Positions 6,301 through 36,128 of a stretch of 64,000 nt of DNA are shown here, piece after piece; positions within the stretch are counted from its first letter, which is position 1, and the number at the start of each line of letters is the position of its first letter. The notes under the pieces were generated by a model. The model did not search any database and had not been told where the DNA came from. It saw only the letters and a program-made list of their open reading frames with translations. Both the position numbers and the translations under genes were made by a program. This DNA is from a virus. The stretch lies in IMG/VR virus record IMGVR_UViG_3300020470_001313, positions 86,608-150,607 of that record, one strand, 5' to 3'.

Positions 6301-7485
6301 TTAAGTTACGATTACGATTTGGTTGCCCATATTGGGATGCATGGTACACTGATAATATAATGTTGCTGGTGCATCCATAGGTACTACGAATGTAGTTGTA
6401 CCAGAACCATCATTAGTCACTCCAGCAGTATAAGCATTACCACCATTTGATTGTCTTATTTCAAATGGATGAACAACATACTGAGAATCATTCTTAAATC
6501 TGTAAACTTGTCCTCTCGTCAAATAAAGAATAGGATCATTAGTAGCACTTACAAATCCTGAACCAGTAAATGTATAGTGAGAGTTAGTTCCATCTTCACC
6601 TAAAGTCCATGTTATTGTTGGACCTGAAACTGGAATCCAGTCAAATCCATCATACATCAACATGTCTCCTTCAGATACACCTGTACCTGAATATGAGAAT
6701 CCACCAGAACCAGTATAGTTAATGGTTAAGGTGTCACCAGTAATACTGGTTGTTATAGATGTACCACCAGTAACAGTTAATGTATCAGTTGCTCCAAGAG
6801 CAGTTGTTGTACCAGTGTCAGCATTGATTGTAGCAAATATATTTCCACCACCAGCCCCGCCACCAGTTCCAGGTCTAAACTCACCGTTTGCTGCATTCCA
6901 GGTAGGAACTTCCCCGTCTGCATAGGTTGTACTTTGAACATTACCAATACTCTGTAATGTTGAAGTTGTGGTATCTAATATCTCACGCCATCCAGCAGAT
7001 GCAGAATAATATGCTTTTGCTACGTCATTAACGTATGCAAACATTCCAGTATATGTTCCATGAGGAGGAAGATTAGCAGAAGCAACATAAGGAGCATTCC
7101 ACTTTAAAAATCCATCAGCACCATCAATAATAGTATCGGTAGCATTAGTACCATTTCTTAAAGCAATATCTCCAGTACCATCAGACTGTATTAGAATATT
7201 ACCATTATTAGATGATACAATGTTATATCCATTAACGTTTAAATTCTGTTCTAAAATTGCCTTATTAGTACCTTGCCCTGGAGCAAAAGCAGTACCATTC
7301 CAAGTCAAAGAATCTCCTAAGTTAGGAGATGCAGTACTTACTAGAAGGTTGGTTGCACCAGAAGATCCACCTAATGAATCGTAGAGTTCAGTGAAATTAT
7401 CATTGACTTTCGTACCACCAGCACGTAGTGAATCACCAGTGCCATCATTAGCGGTAGTACCAAGTGCTAGTAGTTGTTTTGCCAT
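6301..7485 (-). CDS. gp9: gp9-like baseplate wedge / tail-fibre connector with C-terminal cupredoxin-like domain
   Basis: N-terminus MAKQLLALGTTANDGTGDSLRAGGTKVNDNFTELY matches the gp9/gp10 N-terminal motif; C-terminus LYYQCTMHPNMGNQI. Confidence 0.7.
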   Translation of the reverse strand: MAKQLLALGTTANDGTGDSLRAGGTKVNDNFTELYDSLGGSSGATNLLVSTASPNLGDSLTWNGTAFAPGQGTNKAILEQNLNVNGYNIVSSNNGNILIQSDGTGDIALRNGTNATDTIIDGADGFLKWNAPYVASANLPPHGTYTGMFAYVNDVAKAYYSASAGWREILDTTTSTLQSIGNVQSTTYADGEVPTWNAANGEFRPGTGGGAGGGNIFATINADTGTTTALGATDTLTVTGGTSITTSITGDTLTINYTGSGGFSYSGTGVSEGDMLMYDGFDWIPVSGPTITWTLGEDGTNSHYTFTGSGFVSATNDPILYLTRGQVYRFKNDSQYVVHPFEIRQSNGGNAYTAGVTNDGSGTTTFVVPMDAPATLYYQCTMHPNMGNQIVIVT

Positions 7486-7502
7486 TAGACTAAGTTTTTA
7501 AG

Positions 7503-7510
7503 TATTTATG
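7503..7510 (-). promoter_or_regulatory. Late promoter-like CATAAATA upstream of gp9-like gene
   Basis: Plus strand tatttatg, overlapping the upstream stop codon. Confidence 0.55.
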
Positions 7511-8360
7511 AAGGTCTCTGTTCTTTAGTACTAGGACCAAAGATATATGGGTATACTGGCTTGTTATCCTCATCTAATGTGAGATAATAAGCAAATGTAC
7601 CACTAGGAAATTCAGGAGTAACTGCGTATCTACCATTATAAACGTCCAAGTCTCCTAAACCGTTAACGTATTCATAATCTTGAATAAAAGTTCCAGCATT
7701 ATATTGACTGTAACTATATGTTCTATTCGCAGGTGGAGTAGTCAATACTCTATATGAACTAGTGAGTCTTTTAGTTCCTTGTGAATTATCAGTTGAAACT
7801 TTATACCCAAATGGTCCATATATGGGATACCCATCAAAACATATACCAACGATCTTTGAATGACCATCAGGATGTCTAAAGAAGTTACCTTCATAGTTAG
7901 AGTTTGAGAAGTATCCATTAGATTGAATTACTCCATTTGCCCAACAGTTAGTGAGAAAACTTCCTGAATGATAATGGTATGATCCATTCTGCTCTGGGTG
8001 CCCCCCACAAGGGTCTACACCGTACGCTGCTTCATTATATACTGCATTCCATTGAAAATTATCAGGTAGAGGATTAGTATCCCCAGGTAGAGGACCACCA
8101 GCCGCAGAGGGGTTGGTAATCAAAACACCATTAAGTGCAATACCTATACCACCAAGACCAGTTGCTTGAGGGTTAGAAGTATTAGTTCCACCTCTATATG
8201 TAATATCAAAACTATAAGTCTGAGCAGAGATATTATTAGGATTATTGGGGAAATTCCCAGAACCTAAAGGATCTCCAGCTAGAGCAGGATCGGGAAGACC
8301 ATTACTTGTTACAGTAAGAGTATTCCCATCAATAGTAGCAGTAGTATTTGAAGCTGGCAT
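7506..8360 (-). CDS. YHYH domain protein
   Basis: 284 aa; IGIALNGV, DPCGGHPEQNGSYHYH, GHSKIVGICFDGYPIYGP, GDLDVYNGR. Confidence 0.85.
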   Translation of the reverse strand: MPASNTTATIDGNTLTVTSNGLPDPALAGDPLGSGNFPNNPNNISAQTYSFDITYRGGTNTSNPQATGLGGIGIALNGVLITNPSAAGGPLPGDTNPLPDNFQWNAVYNEAAYGVDPCGGHPEQNGSYHYHSGSFLTNCWANGVIQSNGYFSNSNYEGNFFRHPDGHSKIVGICFDGYPIYGPFGYKVSTDNSQGTKRLTSSYRVLTTPPANRTYSYSQYNAGTFIQDYEYVNGLGDLDVYNGRYAVTPEFPSGTFAYYLTLDEDNKPVYPYIFGPSTKEQRPS

Positions 8361-11300: not shown

Positions 11301-14300
11301 AACCAACCAAATCCATATGGTTTAACACCCCAGAATGTTCCCTTCATATCATTTGAAGGTGAACCATCACCAACAACTACGTTACCGTTAATGAATAGTG
11401 AAGGACCAATCGCACCTGTTACAGCATCCCATGTAAATTCTGCCTGATCTGTAGCACTCCATGAAATGCTATGACGGAACTTGTAATACTCATCCTGCTT
11501 AACAAAGCAACTGAATGTATATTCTTGATAAGATAGTGAAGAACCTTCGTCAAAGTTGTTATTAGTATCATCAAATGTGAGTGTAGCAGAGTCAAATGTA
11601 TCAAATGTTGGTAGATTGAATGTTCTTTCAATTACTTTTGGATCAGTATTAACACCAGGAATATACTTGTCAGCAGTTGAAGTACCGTCTGGTGCAACAC
11701 CTATATCATTAGAAATAGTACCACCACTTACAGTCCAACCACCAGCATCAAAAGTCTCTCTCTGTCCACTTGGCCAGATATTATCTGATTGAGTCTCAGA
11801 TGAGACAGGTGATGTAATTAAACGTATATTCTGTAATGCTGCGGTATTATTGAGGTTTGCAGTGCTTACTGGACCTTCAATGCAACCTTCATCCGCACTA
11901 GTAAATGTATGAGTAAAGTCACCACCAGTTTGTATTGCATTAATGGCAGCTGCTTGTCCAGCAACGAATGTATGTGGATACTGGTCAGCAGAAGCTGCAA
12001 CACCAACATTAATTATTATAGTTCCATCTTGCTTCTTAATACCATTAGGTTTACATGTTACGTAAGTATGTGTTGATGTATCAGGTGAAGCACCAATATT
12101 AATACTAAACGAATCGTTATTAATAATTGTAGGTTCCAACCACTTCTGACTCTTAGGATCAGTTGCTCTTGGATATGCATGAACACTAATCTCATTATCT
12201 AAAGCACACTTAAAGGTGATTGCACCATCATCAAGTTTAATTAAATCACCAGCAGAAATACCATGATTATTAATATTAAGTGTTAATATACCATTATTAG
12301 GATTATATGTAGCATCATCAGGATCATCTACATTATCTGTACCTACTGATTTAATGTTAATTGACTTATTATAATATGGGTCAGTTGTACGTGGGTATGT
12401 TTGATTACCAGCACCCTGAGTACATGTAAATGTCAAACTATTAGGTGCAAGTCTAATGCTAGTACCAGCAAGCAATCTATGACCAGTCATAACTGCTCCA
12501 GGTAGACTGGAAGCATATGTATGTGCGACTGGTACACTAATAGCACCGCCATTTGGATCATTAACATTAACTGTTATAGTTGTAGAACTAGTTGCTGTAA
12601 TAGCAAGTCTATTCTTAGCAGCATAATCTATACCACCTACTGCACGAGAACCAGTTAATCTAGGATATGCAGATTGAGTTTGAGTTGATTGACCAACATC
12701 AATAGTAACAGTTGTTGCGGTTACAGCATCAATTGGTAAAGTTTGACCTGAAGCAGGGTCAGAAGAACGAGGATAAGGGTGCTGTGTAGCATGGTTATCA
12801 GCGTCACAAGTAAAGATAACTGCTTGATCAGCAATCTCAACAGTATCACTAGTAGTATAACTATGAGATCCAATCTCAACTACTAGAAGTCCAGTTGCAG
12901 GATCATATGTTGTACCAGCAGCAGCAGTCTTTTGACTTAAAGTTCCACCAACATCAAATGTTAATCCATTAGTTGTACCAGTAACAAATGTATGAGTACC
13001 TGTTGCAGCAGCACAAGTGAAGGTAATAGATTCTGGTTTAAGACCAATAGTATCATCAGTAGTCAATCCATGATTATTACCAACAGTTAACTCCATATCA
13101 CCCGAAGTTGGGTTGTATGTTGCGTTACTTACATCAAGTGATCCAACTGTCAATTCCATATCACCAGTAATATGGTTGTAATCAGCAGCAGTAGGGGTAT
13201 AAGTTCCAGCAGTTGATTTACCAACATCAACAGTAACAGTGTTAGTAGTTACTGCCTCAACAGCAATATCTTTCTTATAGAATGGGTCAGTAGGTCTTGG
13301 ATATGAATGGTAACTACTATCATCATCCATTGCACAAGTAAATGTCAATGAATTAGGTTTGATTTGAATTACATCATTCTGTTTCTGGAGACAATCACTA
13401 AGTGCTGTCTGGAAAGTATGAGCACTAGTGTTAGAAGATATTCCTACATTAACCTCAAAAGTATTTGTAGTTACTGCGGCAATAGTCAACCATCTACCAC
13501 TAGCAGGATCAGATGATCTTGGATAAGTCTTAGTTACACTATTATCTAAAGCACACTTGAATGTTAATGAATTATCATCTATTTTAATCTTATCACCATT
13601 CTTAAATCCATGACCACTTAAAGTAATCACCATTGCACCTGTAGCAGGTGTAAAGGCAGCACCAGTTGGTGTATGCTTAGTATATGGTGTCATTCCATGA
13701 CCAGGAATGGTTAATACCAACTTACCTGTTGAAGGTGTATATGATACAGCAGTTGGAGTATAAGGAGTACCAATTAAATCAGATGTAGAAAGTAAATCAT
13801 AAATTGCATCATCTTTAACCTGTTTTAGGAAAGCAGTTTCTTCTGCTTCTTCCCAAACTCCACCCCAGTCAGCGATGGTAGAAGATCTAATCTCTTCTTC
13901 AAAGTACTCATCACCAACAAGTATTTGTAATGCTGCTTCACGACCTTGCTTACCAGCAGGTACAAGGATCTCAATTATAGTTTCAATTAAAGTATCAATA
14001 GCAGATTGAACATTAGCACAATCTTGAGCAGTATAATCAGTATTATAACCATCATCCTGAGAATCAGTTATAGTTAAATCTGTAACAGCAGGATTGATGT
14101 TTTGATCACTAAATCTACCAACATAATGTTCTGGAGTTAATTGACCAGCACCAGTACTCTGAAGTAAGTTATTAACTGCTTTCTTACAAAGGAATCCTGT
14201 TCTCTGAATTGCTTCAGCAGTTTGAGCAAGTTGATCTTCAACCTGTACAATATTATTAGATGTGTCAAGGAACTTCTTAGCAGCCTCTACAGAACTGTAG

Positions 14301-17300
14301 TTACCACCAACAAGAAGGTCAGAAGCAATAGAGTCAACGATAAGAGTCATATCTCTGATACACTTATTCTTACCGTCAGTATCACCACCTGGGTAGTCAA
14401 ATACTCTTATAGTGTTGCTACCAGCATCAATATAACTGAACTTCTCTTGCATCAGTCCAACTGCTTCAATAGCAATGTATTCTTTGTTAAAGATCATCAA
14501 ATCGGCAGCATCAGCAAATCTGTCACCAGTTGGTGAAAGAGTACTATTCATCAAATTAACAAGAGTGTCAATAGATGCCTTGACGTTTGCACATCCACCA
14601 CCATCAACAGTAATTCCAGCAGGAGGAATAATAACATTAGTAGAGTAATTAGCAACTAGAGTTCCGTCAATTGCTGCCTTAGCATAGAATGCTAGACGCT
14701 CATGAGCATATAGTGACTGTAGAAGTTGTAGTCTAATATGAAGTATCTCACCGTCAGAACCAAGATAGTATCTAAAGGCAGTAACAGTATTTGCATTACC
14801 ACCAAACTCTAAGTCTTCTGCAATAGCATCAAGAATTAAACCAAGGTCAGTCTTACAACGTATTGTACCAAGACCAGAAGCACCACCTGCGTTTCTTGGC
14901 ATATCCTGTACAAGATCAGGATAACGAGCAAGCATATCACCAGCAGTTTCATCAACAATAACAGTTGCATTAGCACGAATTAAATTCGCAGCATCCTTAT
15001 ATCTGTTGAGTGCATCTGGATTTAATTGATTACTTACAAATAAATCATCATCTGGGAATTCTTTATCACAAGTCCATTCGCTAGTAACATAAGCATCAAC
15101 TACACCACCACCAGTTTCACTGGTAGGAGCAGTTCTAGTTACAGTACCAAGATGGTCAGATGGTGTTAATGAATTTGCCTTATCAATAGTGTCAGATATA
15201 ATACCTGTATAAGTTGTAATTGCAGAAGCAACATCCTGACAATAAGGATTAGCAGTATCTCTAGTGATTGTAGTATCAATTACCTGTTCATATCCATGAT
15301 CTCCAGTTATTGAGATTGCGTCTCCACGCATAACATTGATCATGAAATCACGAACCTTAGCAATTGCCCATACAGTCTCACCCTCTTCACCAGAAATATG
15401 GTTTATAGTAATATTATTAGTGTCTGAACGATCAACATAGTATAGAGCAGTATCCCAAGACTTACTATTTCCTTCATTACGTAAGTCATAGCATATTGCC
15501 TTAACCCATTCTTTAGCATCTCTAACACACTTAGAGAATGATGGATGAGTTCTTTGAATAAAGTTAACCGAACTTGGATATTCAAGAGTTCTATTAGCAC
15601 CAGGATCAGATAAAGTATCTGTTACAATCTTCATCAAAGCATCAAGACGTGCATTTGCTTCAGGATATCCACCATAAACGAATGGAATATTTGAATTAGT
15701 TTGCTGAATTTCACCGTGAGAAGTAATTGCATTATCTTCAGAACTTACAAATGTATGTGCATAACCACCACCAGTCTTAACAGCACCAGCAGTAGCACTC
15801 TGGAATGTATGAGTGTAGTTACCACCAGCAATTACAGCACCAGCAGTAGCACCAATAAATGTATGGGCAGTAGGTGAACCTACAGAAGTAATTGGTTTTA
15901 CATCAACTGTAATAGTTCCAGTTTGTGTCTCAAGACCATTAGATGTAGCACTTATAAAGATATGCTCAAAATCTCCAATAGTAGTTTGACCAACCTGAAC
16001 ATCAAATGTATTGTCAGTTATATTACTGATTGCCATCCACTTATTACTAATAGGATCATTTCCTCTAGGATAAGTATGAAGTGTCTGATGTAAATCCTTA
16101 TTACATGTAAATGTTAATGAATTATCTAATATTCTAACCTTATCTTGATCAGTAAATCCATGATTAGCAATAGTTAGTTTTAATATACCAGTAGAAGCAG
16201 TATATGTAGCACCTGTTACTGTATGCTGATTCTTACCAACAGCAGTAATAGGAAGTGCTCTCTGCCAAGCATAGTCAGCACCAGCAGGTGTACCACCAAC
16301 ATAACCAGAACCAGTTCCACGAGGATAAGCAACCTGTACAGGTGAACCACCATAAGTACACTGGAATGTTAATGAACTATCTGCTAGTTTAATACTTTGT
16401 GCTTCAATTAAATCATGAGCACCAATATTAAGTACTAAATCACCAGAAGTGAAGTTATAAGTTGCACCAGCAACATCATATAGAACTTGAGGTGATGCAC
16501 CAACATTAACTGTAATTTCACCAGTCTGCTTCTTAAGAGCATTACCTACACAACTGTTAAAGGTATGAATAGAAGTATCTGGAGACTTACCAATTTGTAT
16601 ATCAAATGTATGTGTTGTTAAGTTCTCAATTGGAATCCACTGAGATGCAGAAGGATCTTTTGGTCTTGGATATGAATGATATGTTGTATCATTATCTAAC
16701 TTACAAGTAAACTTCAATGCATCATTATCAAGTTTGACTTGATCTCCAGCAACCTTAATACCATTAGCAGCAGCACTCTGGAATGTATGAGTGTAATTAC
16801 CACCAGTTCTAACAACAGAAGTTAAAATACTGTTATTAACAGCATTAACGAAGGTATGTGTATAATTACCACCACTTTGAACAGCATTAGAGGAAGTACC
16901 ACCAACCCATGTGTGTGCTGATACGTTAGAAGAAATACCAACGTTAATAGTAATGGTTGTACGACTTACATCATCAACATAGATTGTTCTATCATAGTAT
17001 GGGTCTCTCTGAATTGAAATACCATTATTAGTAGCAGACTCAAATATATGAGTATCTGGGTTTGTAGAAGGTGCAAGATCTAGAACTTGAACTTTAAAGG
17101 TAGTTGAAGTTACATCAAAGATTGGTAACCATCTACCACTAGCATAATCACTTCCACGAGGATATGAGTGGTTAGTAGCATTACCATCCTTAGCACACTT
17201 GAATGTTAATGAATTATCTGCAATCTTAATCTTCTCACCATACTTGTAACCATGAAGAGGTACAGTCAATGTCAAATGTCCTGTAGCAGGATCATATGAT

Positions 17301-20300
17301 GCAGTATTAACTGTAGAAGTATCAATTGTATTTCTTGGATAGGTGTGAGTTGTTACACCATCTGGTTCTTGTGCAGTAGCATCTTGCTGACACTTGAATG
17401 ATAATGAGTTAGCAGCAATCTTAATACCTTGTCCTTTCTTAATTCCGTGGTTATGACCAACAGTAAGAACCATCTCACCTGTATTTGGTGTATAGACTGC
17501 ATTAGTTACATCATGGTTAACTATAGGTGTCTGACCAACAGGAACTGTAATTGTATTAGCATCTACAACAGTTACATCTAACCACTTGTTAGCAACTGGA
17601 TCTGTTGAACGAGGATATGAATGAACAGTTTCATGATGATCCATGTCACATGTAAACTGAAGTGCATCCTCAGCAATCTTAATTCTACCAGTGGACTCAA
17701 GACCATGACCATTAATAGTCATCTGAAGAGTACCATTACCAGGATTGTAAGTTGCAGCACTAGGTGTTAATCCTACAGCAGGAACAAACTTGTGAGCAAA
17801 CTGATTACCAGAAGATCCTACATTTACATTAATAGTAATAGTAGTTGCAGTAACTCCCTTAATATTCAATGCTGCATTATAAGCAGGATCAGTTGTTCTT
17901 GGATACTTATGAGTAGTAGCATAACCATCATTAGAACAAGTGAATACTAAAGATTCTTTTGCTAGTTTAATAGCAGTTCCAACCTTAAGATCGTGGTTAC
18001 CAATCTCAAGTACCAAATCACCAGTTAGATGATCATAATCTGCATGAGCAACATGGAAGTCCTTAAGAGGTGACTTACCAACATTAACTTTGAATACTGT
18101 AGTACTGTCAACATCAACATCTAACCACTCACCGAAGGTAGGATCACTCTTACGTGGATAGGTCTTATTACCAGAACCCATTGCACAACTGAATGTAAAT
18201 GCACCTTCTTCAAATCTTACACGAGCACCATTAGCAAGACCATGAACAGCAGTTGTAGTAACTGACAATTCACCAGTTGCAGGATCATATGTTGTACCAG
18301 AAGCACCAGTTAGATTAGTTGGTCCACTCCAACCATGATTCTGTATATCAAGAGTTAGAACACCTGTTTCAGGATTGTATCTAGTACCAGCAGTACCGAT
18401 ACCAACATTCATTGTAATATCGTTTCCAGACTTAGTAATTGGAATTACTCTACTCCAAGTAGCATCTGCTGTACCAGTTCCTAATGTAGTAAAGATTGGG
18501 TCAGTTGCTCTTGGATAAGCATGGTTTGTAGCATTATTGTCAAGGTCACAAGTCATTGTTAGTGAACTGACCTTCATTTGAACTTCATCACTAGCAGCAA
18601 GTGAATCTGTACCATCAGCACCAACAGTAAGAACTAAGTTACCAGTTTCAGCAGTATAAACTGCACCAGTTACAGTGTAAGTATTACCAGTAGCACTAGC
18701 ATCTCTAATACCACCACTAAGAGCAGATACAAATGCATGGTTACCAGCAACTACTGTATGCTGAGTTTGACCAACAGCAGTAATAGGAATGGTAGTATTA
18801 TGAACTGGATCAGTTGCACGAGGATAAGTCTTGTTAGTATTCTGACTATCCATGTTACACTGGAATGTCAAAGAATCAGTATCAATCTTAATACCATTAC
18901 CAACATTCATGTTGTGCTTACCAATATTAAGCACTAAGTTACCATCAGCAGGAGTATAGGTAGCAGCAGATACATCATGTCCAACTTCAGGAGAAGAACC
19001 AACATTAAATGTAATATTACCATCTTGTCCTAAGAGTCCATGTGGAGCATGGGACTTGAATACATGATTATAAGCACCACCATTGTAAACAACTGCTCTT
19101 GTTAAACAATTGAATACAGCAGAAACGAATGTATGAACTGTATTATTAGAAGTAGGACCAACATTAATAGCAAATGTATCTGTAGTGACCTTACCAATCT
19201 TCATCCACTTACCGCTAAATGGATCAGTCTCTCTTGGATAAGAATGCTGTGTCTTATTATCGTCAGTAGCACATGTGAATACTAAACCAGCATCAGCAAC
19301 CTTAATATATTCACCACTTGCAAATGTATGATCAGCAAGAGTTAGAGTCATCCAACCTGTAGCAGGATCATAATCAGCATCAGTTGGAGTATACTGGTTG
19401 TTAGCATTAACAAATTGATGAGTACTTGTATTGGTTGGAGTAGTACCCTGTAATGCATTAACCTGAATAGTACCACTCTGATACTGAATACCGTTAGCAA
19501 CAGCACTGTCAAATGAGTGAGTTGTAGTGTTAGAAGAAACTCCTACATTACACTTAAAGGTATCAGCATCTACTACCGTTACTGTAATCCACTTACCACT
19601 TATAGGGTCAGTAGATCTTGGATATGCATGAGTACCACCACCAGCAAGACATGTGAATACTATTGAACTGTCTACTATTTTAATTCTTTGACCAGAAACA
19701 AATCCATGAGCAGCAGATGTAATTGTTAATAAACCTGTAGTAGGTTCGTAAGTTGCACCAGTTGCTGTCTTAGAATTAGTTCCAATATCAGTAATCTTAA
19801 GGAACTTATTATATGCAGGATCAGTTGTTCTTGGATATGACTTATTAGTGATGTAATTATCACTATTATGGTTACAAACAAAGTTTAGAGAATTGTTTGC
19901 AATCTTAACATACTCACCAACAGAGAAGTCATGATCTCCAATAGTAAGTTCTAGAACTCCAGATGCAGGTGTATAAGATGCACCACTAACACTGAATCCT
20001 TCAACATTTTCACCAGTACCAGTTTCAATACAGTTATTATCAGCACGAACAAATGTATGTGCAGATGTGTTAGAGGATACTCCAACATTAACAGTAATCT
20101 TACTATCTCTTCTTATAATACCATTTGTAGCAACAGCAGTACAGTTATGATTTGAGGTATCTGAAGACTTACCTATCTGAACATCAAAACTATTTGTAGC
20201 AACAGCATTAATACGTAACCACTGACCACTAGCAGGATCAGTTGGACGTGGATATAGATGATTACTACCGTAACTATCAGTATTACACTGGAAGGTTAAG

Positions 20301-23300
20301 GACTCATCAACAATCTTAACGTATTCACCGACAGTGAAATTATGACCTGTTTGACCAATTGTTAGGACACCTGTTGTAGGTTCATAGTCGGTATCTGACT
20401 GAGCAGCAGTATATGGTGTACCTTCATACTTAATAGGAATTGAAGTATCATATACTTTGTCACGTTTCTGTTTAATACCATTAGCAGTACCAGAAACGAA
20501 TGTATGAGTGTAGTTACCACCAGTCTCTACAGCACCAGCAGAAGCAGAAACGAATCTATGCTCTGTCTGATCTGTTGAAGGAGCAGATGGAAGAACCTGC
20601 ATACTAATGGTCATGTCCTTACCAGTGACACATCCAGCAGTACAAGATACAAATGTATGAGCAGTTGTGTTAGTAGAAGGAACAGCAGGTAGAATCTGAA
20701 CAGTTACAGTATCAGGTGTTCTATTAAATACACTTAACCACTTACCACTTGCTTCATCAGTTGCTCTTGGATAAGAATGAACTGTGTCATGGTTATCATG
20801 ATCACATGTAAAGCTAAGAGCATTGTTTGCAATCTTGATCTTATCACCATTCTGTATAGGATGATCCTTAATAGTTAAGGTCATATGACCTGTAGTAGGA
20901 TTATAATCAGCAAATGTAGGTGTTAAAACAGCATCGCCAACAGCAGTGATAGCAATGGAAGTGTTGTATGTAACACTGTCATTACCATTACTTCTAGGAT
21001 AAGTCTTAGTTGTTGAGTGATTATCGTTGTTATAATCACAAGTAAAGGTTAATGAATCTTGAGCAAGTTTAATTGCATCACCAACAACCATTCCATGAGT
21101 ACCAATGGTAAGTTCCATGATACCTGTAGTTGGGTTGTAAGAAGCATCAGTTGGTGTATAATTTACAGCAGGAGACTTACCTACATTAACAGTAAATCTT
21201 GTAGTACTAGGAATACTCTCAACTTGTAACCACTTATCATATGTTGGGTCAGTCTGACGTGGATATGCCTTATTAGAACTACCACCATCCATTGTGCAAT
21301 TAAATGTGATTGCACCTTCATCAAACTTGATCCAATCACCTACTTGCATACCATGTGTAGCAGCAGTAGTAACATCTAAAACACCAGTTAAAGGAGCATA
21401 GGTTGAACCAGATGCTGCCTGATGAGTGTCAATAGCTGTACGAGGATAAGTATGCTCAGTAGCATTACTATCTAAAGCACAAGTCCAAACTAATGAATTA
21501 GGTTGAATCTTAATTGTCTGACCCGCAGCAAGACTATGTGTACCAATATCAAGTACCATATCTCCTGTAGTAGGATCATATGTACCATCAGTAGGAGTGA
21601 ATGTGTAAGATAGACTCTTACCTACATTAACTTCAAAACTGTCTGGATTTGAATTAGAAATCTTTAACCAACGACCATTCCAAGGATCAGTTGTTCTTGG
21701 ATAATTATGATCAGTATGATGATCATCTTGATCACATGTGAATACTAATGACTTACCAAGAATCTGAACACTATTACCATCTACAAATTTATGTCCAGGA
21801 ACCCATAACTGAAGTATTCCAGTCTCAGGATCATAAGTTGCATTATCTATAGTATGAGATGTAATACCAACTTCTTTAACTGGATTCTTACGTAAATATG
21901 CTTGATCTTCAAGACGAGGATATGTGTGCTCAGACTTATTACCGTCCATTGCACAAGTAAACTTCAATGAGTTAGCAGTAACACATGCACTACCATTAGA
22001 ACGAGTAGAGTTAACTATAAAGTTGTGTGATTTACCAATATCTACTGTAAGATCACCAGATACAGGTTCATAAGTTGCATCAGATGCCTTGAATCCATTA
22101 TATTGAAGAACTGGAGAGTTGTTAATTACTCTCTTGGTAATGTCTCTGGCTTCGTTAAAGACACGAATTGAGAAACTTTCCTTGCCTTTAAGGTGGTCAA
22201 GTTTAGCATTATTGACATATAACTTAGCAGCATCATATGTTTTATTGTTGTAACCATATGTTAGGTTGTAAGAAATATTTCTGATAATATCTTTTACGTC
22301 ATCCTTACAATCTATAGGACCAGTTCCTGGAGGTGGTTCTGGTGAAATACGATCATATGCTTCAGCAGCAATGAAATCTAAGTTACTTTGGATGACATTA
22401 TAGAATTCCTTACCGTAAGTAATAGGTACTTCAGTATCAGGATGAGGAATGTGTAATTTAACAAACTCTTTGTCAGTCTGATAGATTGCTTCATTAGCAA
22501 TCAATTCAACGTTGTTTAATATCTCAGTTGAAGCATCAAAGAATCTGAAGGTAGTATCACCAGTTAAGAACTGATCACCTTCGTTCCATGTAGGTACTCC
22601 AGACCAATCTTGGAAAGTAGTAGATAGGTTAGCACCATCAAAGTGTACTAGGAGAAGAGTGTTAGCATCTCCTTGATGCATATACGTTGCAACAGTAAAG
22701 TTAGTAGTATAACGCTTATTATTAGATACCCTTAATTCATCAACATATCCTTGGAACTGGTTGGCAGCAGCATGATCTGCACCAATCTTAATTGGTTTTG
22801 TAGTACCATAATCAGTAGCATTAGTCCAAGTAGAACCTACCTGAGTTCCATCTAAGAACATTCTATGATTGTTTCCGTCTCTAGAAACTGCTACATGATG
22901 CCATGTATTTTGAGTTACAGTACCACCAGTAATTACGTCAGCACCACTAACATGGAATTCTAATCCAGTACCATCAAGTCTTATACAAGGTGATGCTTCT
23001 GAAGCTTGAGTTCTAAAGTCAATTAAATGCTGAGTACCAGTAACACTAGCAGCATAGAACCAACACTCAACTGTCCATTCACCATTTCCAAAACCAAATT
23101 CAGTTGAAGTTGGAACTGAAACATAAGCAGAACCATTCAAATATAGAGATGCACTACCAAATTTCTTTTGTAGAGTTGCATTAATAGCACCACTTTGAGC
23201 AACAGGAACGTGTAAATCTGTACTACGACGTGCTACCTTACCAAGATAAAGATATTTACGTGCATAGTTAGTACCAATTACTTGAGCAGTACCATTCTCA

Positions 23301-26300
23301 CTACGGATAATATCACCAGATAGGATTAAACCATCTGGAGTAACTTTAGGTTCATCATATGCAAGTTTGTATAGACGAACTGTTTCTCCATCAATTAAAT
23401 CACCTGAGATATTAGAGTAGTTAACAATATGGTTACGAATATCTTCATCAACTGTAAATGTACCAGCAGCATTATTATATTCTAGAATTAGGTTACTTAC
23501 AACCTCAGAATTAGGGAACTTACTGTTAAATTCTGCATTAACATCATTGATATCAGTTAGTTGTAACTGAGTCTGTGAAATATTATCAAGAACAACGTTT
23601 TGGAAGTTAATATTAGTAATTCTGTTGAACACTAATCCTTGGAAAGTAGATCCTTCAGAAATAATAACTTGGTTGTTTGGTTCATTAGTTACTGGGTCTC
23701 TATATGCAGAAATACCAACAACTTCAGCAACAATAGCACTCTGCTGACCTATGATTATATCACCAATGACAATATCAAATAAACCAGCAGTAGACTGATA
23801 AGTACCAGCAGTCTTACTTAATAATACTGTATCTCCAATCTCAATAGTTGTTCCAAAGACATTACTATCAGTTTGGTGACCTACAACAGTAGTTCCATCA
23901 ACACCTCTGTTAGCAGTAACAGTGTTACCAATAATACTTGATACTTCAAATCTCTCAGAATCAATCTGATAAACTCCACCAGCATTAGCAACAATAGTAA
24001 CAGTAGCATCTTGGTTACCACCACCACTAATTGTGACTACATCTCCAAGAGAATATCCTGTGCCACGTTCCTTAATCTTAACAGAAGTTATAACTCCACT
24101 ACCATCTGCTTCAACTTCAACAGTCATTCCAGTACCAGATCCACCAGTTGTTGTTACACCATCAATATTATCAATATATCCAGTACCAGCAGTAGTTAAA
24201 GTTACCTTAGCAAGTGCATATCCAGAAGCAACATCAAATGTGTTACCAGATGCAGAAAGACCAGCAGGAACAGTAGTTAAAACCTGACCATTATCACCTT
24301 CTAGGTTAACTCTTTCAATCTTAGCATTGTCCCCTCTAAGGTTCTCAATGTCTTCTTTAAATTGGAATAGGTTAGTATTTGTAAGTGTAGTAATACTATC
24401 AACATTTGCAGTAAATCCTGTAGCACTAGAAGTGATTGCTTCACCTTCATATGTAAGAGTTGTAGAAGGATCATCAGTCTGGAAAGGTTGACCAGCAGTA
24501 GTCTTATAGTAGAAATCAACACTTGTTAAACCAGTAGCAACAACAATTGCCTCATAATCAGTTACAATACCTCTAATAGTACCACCGATAAGTGGGAAAA
24601 TACCAGAAATAGTACTTAAATTCGCTCTATGGATAGTCTTAAACTCTAATGTAGCATTTGAATACTGAACATTAGCAGGAGGTTGAGGTGGTGATGAGAA
24701 TACAATATTAGATCCCTGAACAGTAAATGCATCTCCAGGAGACTGTACAATACCATTCAAACTAATTAAGAGTTGATTAGCAGATGCAATAACAGGTTCT
24801 GTTACAACATTACCATCTTGGTTAATATTTTGAACAGTTAATGGGAATGAGATCTTCTCACCATCAAATTGATCTGAAATATCATTAATCTTCTGAACAG
24901 TAGAAGTTAGAATCTGCTCGGAAGAAGTCAAATTCTTCTGTCTGAAACGAACCTCAGTGTTATCAAATTCTGTATAAACTGGTTCAACTAAAGTAAAGTT
25001 CTGTAGATTTGGAACAATTGCAGATTCTGCTAAGTTAACTGACTTAGTAAGTTCAAATGCAGTCTCTTTATTCTCAATAGTTGATTTTTCAACTAATCCC
25101 AATTCACCAAATACCTTAAATCCAGCAGGGTGAACGTTAGTAATAAGGATGTCTCTCCAGTCAGATATTGAAACAGGAGCCTTAACACTATAGGAGAAGT
25201 CCTGATAGAAGTAAGAGTCTTGAATCTTCTGAATAATTTCACTAGGTTTACCTACATCATCAACGAATCTACCTGGAGTTGTTGTTATAGCACCAACTTC
25301 CAAAACACCCTTAGCAATACTAAAGTTGTCAATTGTACCAGATGCCTTAGAAATAGTACCAGTAACAATCTGATTCTTACTGAATGTACCAGTATAATCA
25401 ACAATCTTAAGGATTCTAGGTCCAATTTGCCAACCATCATTCTCTGAAACGTATCCAGTTGCAGTTGCAGTTTCTAATGAATCACCTTGATATAGTAATT
25501 CTCCAGCAAGGAAACGACCAGTAACAACGTTTGCAGTAGCAGCACCACCGAATGAATCGGTTAAAACAACCTGTCTACCAGTACCAGCATTAGTATATGA
25601 GATATAATCACCAATTGCAGCATTATCTTTAGTAATTGCTAAACGTAATTGATCATTTTCTAATGAATTAGTAATACCAGAAATAGCATAATATGTTGTA
25701 TTAGCATTCAATCTACCGAAAGATGAGATTGGTAGTTCTGGATCATCTCCACTACCATCATCATTAGCAGTTAATGTTACAGCAGAACCATTTACAATAC
25801 CATGTGGGAACGAGAATTGTAGTAAATTAAGGTCAAGGTTAACAACATAGTTGAAGGATGACTTCAAAGTTACATCAGGTTGAGAGGAGTAACCTGCACC
25901 TGGATCCTTAACTTCAATAGCATCAATACGTCCGTTCTTAATAGATGCCTCAGCAGTTGCACCAGTACCTCCACCACCAGCAATAATAACAGCAGGAGGT
26001 GTAGCATATCCAGAACCTGGGTCAGTAACGGTAATACTATCCAGTATGTTTGTACTAGTTAACTGAACGTTGACTGGGAATGTGATTTCAGGACGTAATG
26101 TATAGTCATGAGTATAATCAAAACCGAAGTTGTTGTTCTTAAGTTTCTTAATCTTACCGATCTTATCTGCTTTAACAAATACAGATGCACCAGATCCATT
26201 AGGAGGAATAACAACATCTAATTCTGCACCAGAACCAGTAAGTCCAGCACCTAAAATACCAGTGATAGACTCAATATCAATAGTTGCAGTAGTATAATTC

Positions 26301-29300
26301 TTACCTGGATCAGTAACGATTACCTCAGAAATCTGTCCTGGAATGTTGTTACCATCCTCATCCTCACCATCAGCAACAGTAATATTAACTTTACCACCTT
26401 CACCGTCACCAGCAATAGGTACTCCAGTGTATTCTCCTACAGCATATTCAGTACCTGGTTCAGTAATTGCAACTCTTTCAATCTTACGATTGGAAACAAT
26501 ATTTGAAATGACTGGTAACTTCTTGTAGAATCCACCACCATTTACTAGACGAATATCTCCAATTGGTCCAACTGCTTTCTCTGAGAATGTTGTATATTTA
26601 ACTAAACTTGCTTGAGCAGTACCTTCTGGTTCTGATGTTAATGGGAATTTAAAGATTGTATCACCAGTAGTAATAGTACCACCACTAGTAGAATAAATTA
26701 CAAAATTACCGTGATATGGAGTAGTTACAACGTCCATATAGGTACTATCATCAACTGGAGATGTATCACCAGTTCTTGATGGGTCAAAGTAATATGATAT
26801 ATTTGTTACATCATTATTAATAGAAATCTGAACATAAGGTTCTGGTTGGTTTCCAACCTGATAACCTGGAGTTCCAACACGAGTAATTGAGTTAAATGAA
26901 TATTCTAACTTAAATAGATTATCCTTAGAGAAGGACATGAAATATCCCTGTAAGGATTCATCACCAAGCATAAACTTATACTTGTGCTGATAGTACATCT
27001 TAAGTACAGGATGCTTGGCATATATGTCTATTAACGAAGCAGCAACAGGTAAACCAACAGCAGTTCCTCTTAATCCAACAATAAATGATCTAGTACTTAA
27101 AACATTAGTAACATTGAATGATCCATTAAATTCATCAAGATCATTACCAGAAATTAACAGATTATCTCCAACTGAATGACGATGTGCTTCAGCAGTAGTG
27201 AAGTAAATCTTATCAGTGTTTGCAGCATCATCAAGAACTATAATCTTCTCAAGATTAGTAATTAGAGTAATCTGAGTTACAGCAGTTAATTGATTAGGTG
27301 AAGCACCAATTGTTAACTCAGTCTTATCTGCATTCCAACTAACAGTATCAGAAGTTGGAGTAATAACACTTCCAACAATATATGGTGATCCAGCAGGTGC
27401 AGTAGCATCAATTCTTACAGTATAATCATTAATGTTATAATCTTTAAATCTAGCAGATAATCCACCAGGAATGTTGAATATGAATGTACCTTGTCCAGCA
27501 GTAGCATCAAAATCTTGGTTAGCAAAGGTTTGTGATGGAATTTCGTTAACTTCAGTTCCAGTAGATACAATTTCTCCAGTATCTTCCCAACCTACCCAAT
27601 CAGTAGCATTACCGTAACTTGCAACATATACACCAGTATCATCAGTCTCTACAATAGTAGCAGTTCCTATAACCTGTCCACCAGCATTCTTTTGTTGTAA
27701 TTGAGATCCAACATTAAAGGTTGCAGGTTGATTGAATGTAAATTTAAGAATGTTATCTGCTTGTATAGCATCAACAGTCTGAATATAGAACTTACCCCAA
27801 GTTTCTGGAGTTGCTTTAACTTTTCTACCACCAATAGCAGGTATAGTCGCAGTTCTAGTAGACCATACATCTGTAGTTGATGATATAGTTAAAGAATCAA
27901 GTACAAGAGTTGAGTTTACATCATTATAATCTAGAACCTGTAAACCTTCGCCAGCAAGTGTTAATGATCCTGAATTAATTACTTGATCAGTAACATTACT
28001 GTAAGTATATGCAGCAGTATTGAATTGCCACTTAGTATTAGTTCCAGTAAAGTCTCCTTGACGAGATGTATCAACATTCTTATCAGTCTTAAGTATTAAA
28101 CCACAATCAACAGCGTAAGTATATTTCTGAAGATAAGTGTTGAAATCAGCAGTTGTAGATGGAACAATAACCTGAATTACACGGTCAGTAATCTTAAATC
28201 CATCAACGTTAAATGATCCAGCAGTGGTAACAGCCACACCTGTTGCAGCACCAGTCCAGTTGGGTGAGTTACCCATGTAAATCTTAGCAGTAGTTGCAAT
28301 ATTACTGTTTCCTGGAAGAGTTCCTGTACCTACCTGAATTCCATTAGCATATAAGGTATAAACATTACCTGCTTTAGTTAATGCAACATGAACATAACCA
28401 ACGTTGTTAATTAAAACATTATCAACACTAGAAATAGCACCAGCAGTTCTTTGAGTAGTAGCAGAAGCAAACATCTCAAGTCTCTTATTACTACGGTTTA
28501 ACATGACCGTAATACCTGGTTCATTACCATGTCCTACACCAAATAGGATATGATGAGTAGATCCAACAGCACCTAATCTAGTATCTTGTTGATCATTAGT
28601 TTCATCAACTGAGTAGAATCCTTCTATTGTCCAGTCACCATTAATATCAAAGGAATCTCCAAATCCCCAAATACCTGTATTATTACCTGGTTCTAATTCT
28701 AGGTGGGTGTCTGACCATGCAGATCCATCCCAAGCATCAATCATTAAACCACCAGTACTACCCTTACCATTTGGAGCACCAGAAGTAATATTAGAACCTT
28801 TATAATAATCTCCAATGAGTTGTCTATTAGTAATGTTACCTGTTGTATCTACAGGTTCAGTTTCACTAGTTTGTTCAAAATTAAAGAGTCCAATGACTTC
28901 ATTACGGAATGCTTGTCCTACAACAACTGGATCACCAGAAGCATCTGAAATGAATGCGTTAATTTCAAATCCAGTGATATTTCTAGTAAACTTAATTACA
29001 TTGGTAGAAATCAGTGTTCCATCATACTTAATCTTACTTACTTCACTTTGTTTACGATATGAATCATATTCAGCAGTAGATTCGTTAACTTCATAGTTAC
29101 ATGCAACATTATACTGTCCAAATACGTCAATATTACCACCAATTGCTTTTAAGTTTCTCCAAGTGGTTCCTCCAGTAGGAGTCCAACGCTTACCCCAAAC
29201 AACATCATCATCAACAGTTACTTTAGTAACAATTATTGAATTTGAGTTAGATCCAGAGTATGCAGTACCAGAAACATAGAAATCTCCAAATTCATCAATA

Positions 29301-32300
29301 TCAAACCTAGGATCCCAAATATTATAACTGGTTGCAGTGAAGTTAGTAACTTTGTGTACAGCAAGTTGGAATTGCTGTGCTTCACAATGTGCAATAGCAA
29401 ATGTCTTTTGAGGACTGTTACTAGTAGGTGCAACTTCTAAAAGTGCATAGAATCTACCATTATCAGGATTATATTTGATATCTGTTACTTTTTCAGAAGA
29501 ATCGGTACTAGCGATCTTTCTCTTTTGTTGAATAATGAGGTTTTCATTAAATACAATCAAGAAAGCATCATAAGGATTAGAAGTGTTAGTATTGGTATAA
29601 CCACCTATACAGAACTTATTCTCACCAACCTTAGTGATTGCAGTTACTATGTCTGCACGAGTAGAACCTGAAATACCAGCAATTTCCTTTTGATATTGAA
29701 TTCCAACATTAGCACCACCTGAAGATTGATTGAACTTCATCAAAACAACATCAGGGTTGTAGTTAATATTAAGTGAATTTGGTTTTGTAGTACCAGTTAC
29801 GTATACATCTTGAGTGTCAGAAGTAATGTCAACATATATTGCAGAAAAATCACAATAAGTATCTTGACCACTTGGTTGTTCTGATCTAGCAGTCTTAGAC
29901 CAAATTAAGTCTCCAGACTGAGAATACTTGGCAGCAAAACCTACTCTGTTGTTAAATTCATCTAATGTATTACCACAAACATAGTAATCTTTAGTACTAT
30001 CATCTGTAAATATAGCATTAGAAACACTATTTTTTAAATTATTTGTATTATTGAGGAAATACTCTGCCTTCTTAAATGACTGAGGATGTGATATTACTAA
30101 TTTTGGAGCACTAGTAAACCCATTACCAGATCTAACAATATTAAATTCTGATACAGTACCATTACCAGTATCAATTATTGGAGTAATAGCAGCATGTTGT
30201 CCTACACCATCAATTTCAACTGAAATAGGAACATCATCATTATATCCAGTACCTACTTGAGTTACATTGATTTTTTCAATACCATCAACTACTTTAACCT
30301 TATAAGTCTCTAATTCACTTGCTGAGTTTGGAGTATAATCAATAAGAACTCTATCAGTAGCAAGAAGATCATGAGGTTCAGCACATTCTACAACACCATG
30401 AGGAACATCATCAATTAACTCATAACTATAAGAACTAACAGATTTACCTTCAATTGTTCTAACAACAGCAGATATACCATATCCTTCAGTATCAGTATTA
30501 TCAAAGACTAAACGGTCATTAACCTGATAACTATCACCTGGATTCTCTACAACAAATGATGAAACCGCAGCATCTTCAAATTTAGTTGTTGTTTCAACTT
30601 CAATATCAACTTTAGAGTCAAATCTAACTTTAGGGAAGTAATCAAAGAGTTCTAACTTGTTTTCTTCAAGTAAAGATCCAACATCTGTAAGTTCTTCAGC
30701 AGTTGTTTCAGTATTAGTGATTTCATAGGTAGCGCGGAAACCGACATACTCAATGTCAGTAATATTTGCACTTTGTGAAGTTCCATTATTATCATAAGTA
30801 AAATCTAAACCAATATATTGATCATAAGTGCCATCAAATGCCTTATGGAAATTTTCATTAGAAATTGCTCTTACTAAAGCAGTATTAACTCCAAGTCCGT
30901 TATGAAGAACTTGTACAGTAATTGCAGAAGTGCTAGGAGCAAATTGAGCATTATTGGTAACAAATGCAGGTACAACATACTGTTGACCTTCTGCCATTGC
31001 AATGGTAGACTGATCGTATGTTAACCTGAATACTCTATCATCTTGACGAGTTGCTAAACGATTTCCGTTTTGTTGGTAATTAGTATCAATTACTTGGTCA
31101 CCATCAGCATCTTCCCAAATTGGGTCAAATGTTAACTCTAAACCATCTTCTGTAGTTAAGAGATCAGCAGTTGCGTTAGGTGTACGTTCAACATCAATGT
31201 CAACATTCTCATATGGGTCTCTATAACGAATAACACCAGTAGGAATATTTTGCTGTACAGCAGTTGCAGCAAGGTTCCATTTATCTACACTGGAGTTAAA
31301 ACTAGGACCAATAATGTATGGGAATACTGGGTTACCATCTTCAGTAGCGTCAATAGTAATGAAATAACCATAAACACCTTCTGGGAACTCAGGAGTTTTA
31401 CCAAAACGACCATTATAACGGTCTAAATCACCAACACCGAAGTTATAAGTATAATCTTCTACAAAAGTACCAGCAGGGAATGTATTAGTAGGTGGAGTTC
31501 CATAATATGAATCTGGAATACCATCATCATCACTATCAGTTAAAATTACAGTTTCTCTACCAAATGCATCAATTGGAGGTAATAATGGACCACCAGTTCT
31601 AACTGGAATTGTATTAGTTACCTCATTATAAACTAATTCTGGTTTAAGACTATAACTAGGTTCTAGACGACGTACATTTGAAGATTGATCAGTAGGATCA
31701 GAATATCCATAAGGACCATAAATTGGGTTACCATCAAACGCCCATCCAAGGATAGGAGAGTGTGTAATATTAGAAGTTGCTTCAGTTAACTTACCATTAG
31801 CATCTTCAATTAAATTATCACCAAGAACGTATCTAAGTCTCTTAGGATTGCTTAAGTGAGCATATTCACCACCATATTGGTTGTTTAAACCAGAGAAAAC
31901 AGATCCTTGAGCATCATCAAGAACAGTAGTAGGAATATACCCACCTCTTGTCTCATTTCCAACTTGTAATGGTTTTTGCTCAGGACCAGCAAGGTTATAG
32001 TTCCAATCTTGAACAGAAGCAGTAAATTTAGCATCTTTACCAACTGAACTTAGAACAATAATTGTAGTTCCTGATTCGTAGTTAATACCACGGTTACTGA
32101 TAGTAATACTTGTAACACGACCAGCATTTTCTCCATCAGTATCAATAATTGCTTTTGCAACAGCACCAAATCCAGTACCATAGATTTCTACAGTAGGAGG
32201 TGTTGTATATCCATTACCAGCGTTAATAACAGCAATTGAGATAATTCGTCCATTATTTACAATTGCTTGTGCCTGGGCACCTTCACCAGAGCTTAGAGTA

Positions 32301-36109: not shown

Positions 36110-36128
36110 TGATTATTTTGGTTCAGGC

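Follow-up and report, generated by a model that had tools for sequence, protein, structure and literature searches.

Phycobiliproteins are known from the light-harvesting antennae of cyanobacteria and algae, and since 2023 they have also been recognised as relatives of soluble bacterial bilin-binding globins. Besides the light-harvesting subunits themselves (PF00502; CpcA/B, CpeA/B and ApcA/B), the phycobiliprotein fold is found in the bilin-binding PB domain of ApcE, which occurs once, in the phycobilisome core, is embedded with a loop insertion in a large multidomain protein, and attaches its bilin autocatalytically. Outside the antenna are the BBAG globins, cellular proteins of a single domain whose genes neighbour those of haem oxygenase and bilin reductase. 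Two of them, BBAG-1 and BBAG-3, are distant phycobiliprotein paralogues that keep a CXRD motif and need no lyase for the covalent attachment of bilins (Rockwell et al., 2023; PMC10151467). Here, we describe four helical units (H1 to H4) of a giant virion protein encoded in positions 86,608 to 150,607 of the IMG/VR virus record IMGVR_UViG_3300020470_001313, a stretch of 64,000 nucleotides that we call the window and that makes up the final 64 kb of a 150.6-kb viral contig with an estimated completeness of 85%. All four units lie inside a single open reading frame (ORF) of the minus strand (8381-36109; 9,242 residues), which takes the place of the T4 baseplate wedge protein gp7, and a reading of the bare sequence (the original prediction) had proposed them to be phycobiliprotein-like domains with chromophore-site cysteines. 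Our analysis indicates that the units are very probably true, very distant phycobiliprotein homologues with the globin-like fold of that family.

Sequence and fold relationships to phycobiliproteins

To begin with the sequences, the Pfam scan gave H3 a match to PF00502 of 14.4 bits (E 0.037), below the cut-off of 22.2 bits; none was obtained for H1, H2 or H4 singly, and no PF00502 protein was found in the 85% of the genome that the contig covers. Judged in this way, the units fall outside PF00502 as curated and form a separate, more distant family. When a profile of ten H3/H4-type units was run with hmmsearch against 177,635 distinct PDB sequences, 36 were returned at E ≤ 10, and all but one of these (35; best E 0.013) are either phycobiliprotein alpha chains or biliproteins closely related to them. 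The register was always the same, with the profile cysteine falling on Cys84 of GKxKCARD. No solved structure containing the phage units themselves was found in this search.

Moreover, profile-profile comparison with hhalign, using as target 32 aligned phycobiliproteins that came from five cyanobacterial genomes, gave a probability of 91.8% and P 7.6e-7 for the cyanophage unit profile. A profile built from 250 metagenomic units gave 91.4% and P 9e-7, the match spanning helices B to G (97 columns). As controls, reversed profiles gave P 0.1-0.4, and the best of 30 block shuffles gave P 6.5e-4. Identity between the units and phycobiliproteins is about 15-20%, and P0003, a distant member of the phage family, has a sub-threshold match to PF00502 on the other half of that profile (positions 65-154). 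A closer kinship to the phycobiliprotein-like paralogues of cyanobacteria (possible BBAGs) was considered and set aside, these giving P 4e-4 at best, from shallow paralogue profiles, versus P 9e-7 for the true phycobiliproteins.

Turning to the fold, two template-free models were made, one of H3+H4 (AlphaFold2; residues 7001-7384, 67-row alignment; pLDDT 78.5, pTM 0.77) and the other, also by AlphaFold, of the naturally unsplit H2+H1 orthologue on a related contig, L006 (pLDDT 79.1). In these models the units are predicted to adopt a phycobiliprotein-type globin-like fold with helices A, B, E, F, G and H. A Foldseek search of the PDB with the H3+H4 model had its top ~45 ranks (29 entries listed) occupied by phycobiliprotein, mostly beta, or biliprotein-like chains, the best being phycoerythrin beta (7ap5; TM 0.68 on target, 163 columns, E 1.6e-3), and haemoglobin came after the phycobiliprotein ranks. 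VIA-align, which is independent of Foldseek and was run over 48,161 representative PDB chains, likewise placed phycobiliproteins or ApcE in the first eight positions (Z 16.3-12.6). These were phycoerythrin beta (Z 16.3), two allophycocyanins (Z 14.7, and Z 14.0 with a root-mean-square deviation (rmsd) of 2.1 Å for 120 residues), the ApcE bilin domain (4xxi_A; Z 14.0, rmsd 2.0 Å over 118 residues), phycoerythrin alpha (Z 13.4), and three ApcE chains (Z 12.6-12.7). Globin-like proteins other than phycobiliproteins, such as RsbR, globin-coupled sensors, and photocobilins, followed at Z 11.6 and below. The H2+H1 model of L006 gave the same eight families on top (Z 14.0-10.7); phycoerythrin beta scored Z 14.0, and the bilin domain of ApcE scored Z 13.4 with an rmsd of 2.2 Å.

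Could a generic helical repeat with a chance short motif have been modelled by AlphaFold on a known fold? Each of the Pfam, PDB hmmsearch, and Foldseek statistics given above is marginal when taken alone, and the aligner's own note cautions that helical models can reach Z ~13-14 by chance. However, independent methods agree on the same family in the same register, the controls are weaker by 3-6 orders of magnitude, the separately aligned model of a different unit recovers the same top eight, P0003 matches the half of the PF00502 profile that the others do not, and phycobiliproteins stand 2-5 Z units above other globins. Non-homology is thus, in our judgement, highly improbable. The common register on Cys84 and the two models together uphold the original prediction of phycobiliprotein-like globin-fold domains.

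What the units share with light-harvesting phycobiliproteins is the helix order A-B-E-F-G-H and the K-C-x-R-D-x-G site of Cys84, along with Gly +5, Tyr +13, and Gly +18 of helix E; their best sequence match in the PDB is phycocyanin alpha and their best fold match phycoerythrin beta. They differ in being covalently chained in tandem within virion proteins 2,000-9,000 residues long, in the huge insertions that their loops contain, and in having an Asp at +14, a Tyr at +30, and an Asn in helix B that are invariant in the phage family and lacking in the antenna proteins. Here, we also noticed that most of the best structural alignments of H3 begin near phycobiliprotein residue ~33, and that the preceding 32 residues of the model have pLDDT <50. 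The X/Y assembly helices, which the original prediction had taken to be missing, have no confident counterpart in the H3 model, and units lacking the X/Y hairpin would not be expected to form an alpha-beta monomer or a ring. In H2, the L006 model shows an extra N-terminal helix pair. As in ApcE, the phycobiliprotein fold is embedded in a large protein, but the phage units are multiple, belong to a virion protein, and have their cysteine at a different place from the attachment cysteine of ApcE.

Anatomy of the units and of the inserted arrays

H3 (14525-15037, minus strand; residues 7025-7195) and H4 (13958-14524, minus strand; residues 7196-7384) are complete units, the former comprising helices A, B, E, F, G, and H. 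The helix E motif of H3 is RCKTD, with Thr in place of Arg (Cys7085, at 14855-14857), and its second cysteine, Cys7173, is found in GGGCANV (14591-14593). H4 has the full C-x-R-D in GKNKCIRD (Cys7250, at 14360-14362) and a second cysteine, Cys7364, in AQDCANV (14018-14020), both H4 cysteines being invariant in the alignment of relatives. In BLASTP, H3 and H4 match each other with E 7e-16 and 31% identity, and a search of the giant protein with the H3/H4 model matched the cysteine helix of H1 and of H2 and nothing else. A hidden Markov model (HMM) of the family, built from metagenomic proteins only with the window sequences left out, found exactly four units in the six-frame translation of the window (iE 2e-15 for H2, 1.3e-15 for H1, 1.4e-21 for H3, and 7.4e-24 for H4). 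To judge from these comparisons, H1 to H4 are homologous repeats, as had been read by eye, and all seven motif cysteines sit exactly where they had been placed in the translated ORF.

The second pair is less simply arranged. H2 is present in two parts, the N-terminal one (22103-22549, minus strand; residues 4521-4669) holding helices A/B, the extra helix pair, helix E, and helices F-G, and the C-terminal one (15596-15721, minus strand; residues 6797-6838) holding a remnant of the G-H loop and helix H (ANARLDALMKIVTDTLSDPG, residues 6818-6837). Its helix E motif is DCKDD, with Asp in place of Arg (Cys4601, at 22307-22309). Helix H aligns on GGGCANVKASIDTLVNLMNSTLSPTG of H3 and on the GGC...IDNLMAIVTDTIMDP of two related contigs (L020/L021), and the position of the second cysteine, correctly described as absent from H2, is held by Tyr, with GGC at the same position in some relatives. 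H1 follows directly (15155-15595, minus strand; residues 6839-6985) as a truncated unit of helices E-H only; its helix E motif is KCVRD (Cys6861, at 15527-15529) and its second cysteine, Cys6957, is in PYCQDV (15239-15241). Helices A/B of H1 are gapped in the unit alignment, the family HMM covers only positions 60-163, and the L006 orthologue of H1 is modelled as four helices. The upstream R..A...I..N helix pair that had been ascribed to H1 does not belong to it, as the helix ahead of H1 (ANARLDALMKIVTDTLSDPG) is helix H of H2. In all, a full C-x-R-D is found in H1 and H4, and H2 and H3 keep the Cys and the Asp and lack the Arg.

Between the two parts of H2, that is, between its helix G and helix H, lies array 1 (15722-22102, minus strand; residues 4670-6796), in which a repeat census counted ~20 beta-type repeats of ~85 residues. 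That these 2,127 residues are an insertion follows from the orthologues in phage S-SSM4 and in ACG-2014d-like contigs, which lack array 1 and in which H2 runs straight into H1, and from a unit-for-unit alignment of H2+H1 with H3+H4. The notion that H1 and H2 belong together is borne out by this contiguity. New over the original prediction are the adjacency of H2 and H1 in relatives, the insertion of the array in the G-H loop of H2, and the absence of helices A/B from H1. The array repeats have the consensus Y.P.TG.L.L.I..H..G..IKI...L.F.C..D....H.YPR..DP...W, and no Pfam family matches them. The same ~85-residue beta-type repeats recur in array 2 (11885-13759, minus strand; residues 7451-8075), as delimited by a census of the YPR motif. 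There are ~26 copies over both arrays, each keeping one Cys and one His before YPR, and this pair could form a metal site. Array length is very different between related phages.

Taken as a whole, we conclude with high confidence that the helical units form a tandem stalk in the gp7-position baseplate protein and that the long beta-repeat arrays are looped out of G-H loops. Even if no bilin is bound, such a module accounts for a large share of the unannotated sequence in the largest cyanophage genes, and shows how these genes become larger, with repeat arrays looped out from a helical scaffold.

Between H4 and array 2 there is a further helical stretch (residues 7385-7449), in which GREAALQILVGDEYFEEEIRSS ... 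FLKQVKDDAIYDLL (13790-13945, minus strand; residues 7389-7440) may represent helices A/B and E of a fifth, degenerate unit, which lacks the cysteine and is interrupted by array 2. The stretch is conserved in S-SSM4, and it gave no match with the family HMM in the six-frame translation of the window.

Conservation, distribution and possible bilin binding

A profile search of 1.84 billion representative proteins returned 910 at E ≤ 1e-3, many of them giants, with up to 34 units per chain. Counted over ~1,590 unit copies from 158 representative proteins among the metagenomic giants, helix E has the consensus K-C-x-R-D-x-G-x-I-x-D-A-x-x-x-D-L-x-Y-G-G-N, in which Cys is conserved at 98%, Arg(+2) at 93%, and Asp(+3) at 99%, the Gly(+5) and Gly(+18) shared with phycobiliproteins being kept as well. 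The original prediction had staked itself on C-x-x-D being conserved in homologues, and it is. Of the residues peculiar to the phage family, Asp(+14) is conserved at 99%, and both Tyr(+30) and the helix-B Asn are conserved at 97%. The second cysteine, which in H1, H3, and H4 is located at the start of helix H in the manner of beta-Cys155, as had been proposed, is lacking in most units of the family. Mean identity among the copies is ~16-20%.

In 50,697 phage records, the units of the window matched 361, those of P0003 matched 178, and those of P0005 matched 273, and in all three independent queries every match was to a Synechococcus, Prochlorococcus, or 'Cyanophage' record, plus one uncultured marine virus. 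The matched features are annotated as tail-fibre, short-tail-fibre, baseplate, or virion structural proteins. A control query with gp6 on the same records retrieved 2,367 T4-like phages of all hosts. We hold with high confidence that the units make up a family specific to viruses, present in giant baseplate and fibre proteins of almost every cyanomyovirus. Such a virion-only third branch would widen the phycobiliprotein family, being chained by the dozen with the chromophore triad almost perfectly kept. Full-text literature searches found no description of domains of this kind. A cellular origin within present-day cyanobacteria was also looked for, and none was found among 301 cyanobacterial genomes, a set that had no positive control.

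Some further occurrences may be mentioned. One metagenome contig (L160; ERZ4201050) is T4-like by its gp13 and gp15 and encodes a 4,183-residue protein that holds 22 units, and a second giant ORF comes after it. The gp13 of this contig has its best match in Microcystis phage Mel-JY01 (47%) and its next best in Flavobacterium phages, neither of which shows units. Two fragments of unit-rich metagenomic giants were binned with an actinobacterial metagenome-assembled genome.

As for function, we tentatively propose that the units bind bilin covalently at the predicted chromophore site, a reading to which we give somewhat less than an even chance. It is favoured because the residues by which phycobiliproteins attach and hold the chromophore are the most conserved positions in a family that has diverged to ~16-20% identity, because a lone cysteine retained at 98% in an extracellular protein calls for an explanation, because only viruses assembling in cells that contain bilin have the family, and because the diverged CXRD globins BBAG-1 and BBAG-3 attach bilins without lyases. 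The latter precedent means that a CXRD globin, though diverged, is able to assemble into a biliprotein by itself. In the mechanism that we envisage, the units would be made as apoproteins late in infection and would take up phycocyanobilin or phycoerythrobilin from the host pool, which in this phage could be topped up by its own ho1, pcyA, and second reductase. The bilin would form a thioether with the helix-E cysteine and be held by the Arg and Asp of C-x-R-D, and attachment might be autocatalytic, as in ApcE and the BBAG globins, or carried out by host lyases. H1 and H4, having the full triad, would be the better candidates; H2 and H3, without the Arg, may bind only weakly, if at all. The helix-H cysteine of H1, H3, and H4 may take a second bilin, in which case the baseplate would hold up to seven bilins per chain, and a plausible use would be light sensing that gates adsorption.

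The conservation pattern can be read otherwise. In a purely structural module, the phycobiliprotein-derived bundle would be a rigid, stackable spacer or scaffold for the receptor-binding beta-repeat arrays, without any ligand, and the conserved Cys, Arg, Asp, Asp, Asn, and Tyr would be a buried polar cluster that stabilises the fold. Chains of up to 34 tandem copies, loops that accept insertions of more than 2,000 residues, a truncated H1 that is nonetheless conserved, and invariant residues that phycobiliproteins do not have would all suit a scaffold, as would the missing Arg of H2 and H3, the loss of the cysteine in one orthologue, and the lack of co-occurrence with bilin genes described below. 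Yet a lone cysteine at 98% in ~1,590 divergent extracellular copies, most of them in units without a partner cysteine, is unusual for a structural residue, the residues kept are exactly the phycobiliprotein chromophore triad, which would have been free to drift had the ligand been lost, and the restriction to viruses of bilin-rich hosts would have to be mere lineage history. We regard this reading as a serious possibility, albeit one that we doubt. A disulfide between the two cysteines was considered and rejected, since most copies have no second cysteine and so a disulfide cannot explain the invariant one; in phycobiliprotein structures, moreover, the 82/84 and 153/155 sites lie far apart.

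Alternatively, the site may be functional for something other than bilin, with a metal or other cofactor bound at the Cys together with the Asp, Asp, Asn, and Tyr, or with a covalent cross-link, inside one chain or joining two, that hardens the fibre. Several invariant acidic and polar residues do surround the cysteine on helix E and the next helix, and each of the neighbouring beta-repeats also retains one Cys and one His. Structural metal ions are common in phage fibres, and autocatalytic cross-links occur in several virion or surface proteins. Still, no known metal site or cross-link chemistry fits Cys, Arg, Asp, Asp, Asn, and Tyr on a globin fold, and in the nearest relatives, whether judged by sequence or by fold, the cysteine always serves for bilin (PMC10151467), which makes a site of this other kind improbable.

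Returning to covalent bilin binding, several observations weigh against it. In the window, only H1 and H4 have C-x-R-D, H2 having C-K-D-D and H3 C-K-T-D, and the H2 orthologue of two IMG/VR contigs (L018/L019) has lost the helix-E cysteine. The residues invariant only in the phage family (Asp +14, Tyr +30, and the helix-B Asn) could mark a different buried polar network or another function. High-light Prochlorococcus cells hold very little bilin, and we know of no report of a coloured or fluorescent cyanophage preparation. Nor do the units travel with phage bilin genes (ACG-2014d-like genome, S-SSM4, and P-SSM2). In the L018/L019 orthologue, where C-x-x-D as a whole has gone (SVAEIKNVIRN), the rest of the unit is kept, and thus an individual unit can survive without the site.

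The original prediction had asked whether the rest of the genome has the bilin genes, and in part they are there. Outside the window, the contig has ho1 (contig 7,023-7,631) and, next to purM, pcyA (230.8 bits vs. a cut-off of 206) in tandem with a divergent pebA/pebS-like reductase (contig 35,618-36,827); cpeT, also asked for, was not found in the 85% of the genome that the contig covers. The giant gene (contig ~95-122.7 kb) lies ~60-110 kb from these genes and, on this contig, is not clustered with haem oxygenase or bilin reductase genes as BBAG genes are; many unit-bearing phages lack such genes.

Strict co-occurrence of the units with cpeT, ho1, or bilin reductases was examined and is contradicted by this genome and by three others. 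The complete genome of S-SSM4 has units and one reductase and lacks both ho1 and cpeT, and an ACG-2014d-like genome (99% complete) has units and lacks cpeT, ho1, and bilin reductase altogether. Conversely, P-SSM2 (NC_006883), a phage of the ho1/pebS/pcyA type, has ho1 and bilin reductases and no unit, as determined by three methods, one of which was an hmmsearch run unfiltered over the six-frame translation of the whole genome, using two models and with the window as positive control. P-SSM2 is the only T4-like cyanophage tested that has no phycobiliprotein-like unit at all. Given this lack of co-occurrence across phages, the units cannot be the general explanation for phage bilin genes, as the original prediction had suggested they might be, and any bilin that they bind would usually come from the host.

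A link to light-dependent adsorption had likewise been suggested. P-HM1 and P-HM2 do not adsorb in the dark, as was shown earlier for S-PM2, independently of photosynthesis, and P-SSM2, P-SSP7, and P-GSP1 do adsorb in the dark (PMC6628666). With one and the same profile, we counted 6 units in P-HM1, 6 in P-HM2, 11 in S-PM2, 0 in P-SSM2, and 0 in P-SSP7, so that unit presence fits the phenotype in five of five phages. P-HM1 and P-HM2 are, however, one species and P-SSP7 is a podovirus, and the correlation amounts in effect to four independent phages and is confounded by phylogeny, which weakens it as a point in favour of bilin binding. The suggested link is compatible with these data, and with a sample too small to count as evidence we treat it as a lead.

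A bolder extension is that in most T4-like cyanophages the baseplate and fibres carry covalent bilins in their units as a virion-borne photoreceptor, in which light-driven changes of the chromophore would act on the stalk so that the receptor-binding arrays are released or oriented. We think this unlikely. If true, it would explain why S-PM2, P-HM1, and P-HM2 require light to adsorb, a requirement that does not depend on host photosynthesis, and would mark the first case of a photoreceptor as part of a virion. The module also makes testable the basis of light-dependent adsorption in cyanomyoviruses, the existence of a phage-encoded client for some of the phage bilin and lyase-like genes, and the role of phycocyanobilin in Prochlorococcus systems that lack phycocyanin.

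The gp7-position protein and its genome context

The N-terminus of the giant ORF matches PHROG 701/19630 (virion structural protein) and PHROG 2885 (baseplate wedge subunit), as well as Baseplate_wedge of Pfam (39.2 bits vs. a cut-off of 27). A gp6-like gene (36129-38102) lies immediately upstream and gp9-, gp10-, and gp11-like genes lie downstream, and the same gene order is seen in S-SSM4. Counterparts are annotated as gp7 in P-HM2, as 'virion structural protein' in S-SSM4, and as 'virion structural protein, putative fiber' in Syn9. From its position in the module and its N-terminal homology, the ORF can be assigned as a T4 gp7-type baseplate wedge protein, with which it shares both the gene position (after gp6, before gp8-11-like genes) and the N-terminal baseplate-wedge homology. 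The cyanophage protein is nine times longer, however, and T4 is not known to have a counterpart of the phycobiliprotein-like stalk, the beta-repeat arrays, or the YHYH and laminin-G-like domains.

By sequence, the source is a T4-like Prochlorococcus phage, and its host is likely a high-light Prochlorococcus, the psbA of the contig being 92% identical to those of strains such as MIT 9302 and SS51. This psbA is partial and located at the contig start.

The counterparts are shorter than the 9,242 residues found here (S-SSM4, 6,932; P-SSM4, ~7,312; Syn9, ~6,076; P-HM2, ~4,458), and most of the excess is the array inserted in H2. The N-terminal half of the protein (residues 1-4464; ~22700-36109, minus strand) contains many short G-G-x-G-Y-(T/S)-x-x-P-x-(V/I) repeats and a YHYH domain (PF14240) at residues 1410-1588. 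It also has two laminin-G/concanavalin-like stretches, the better of which (residues 4325-4464) is situated just ahead of H2.

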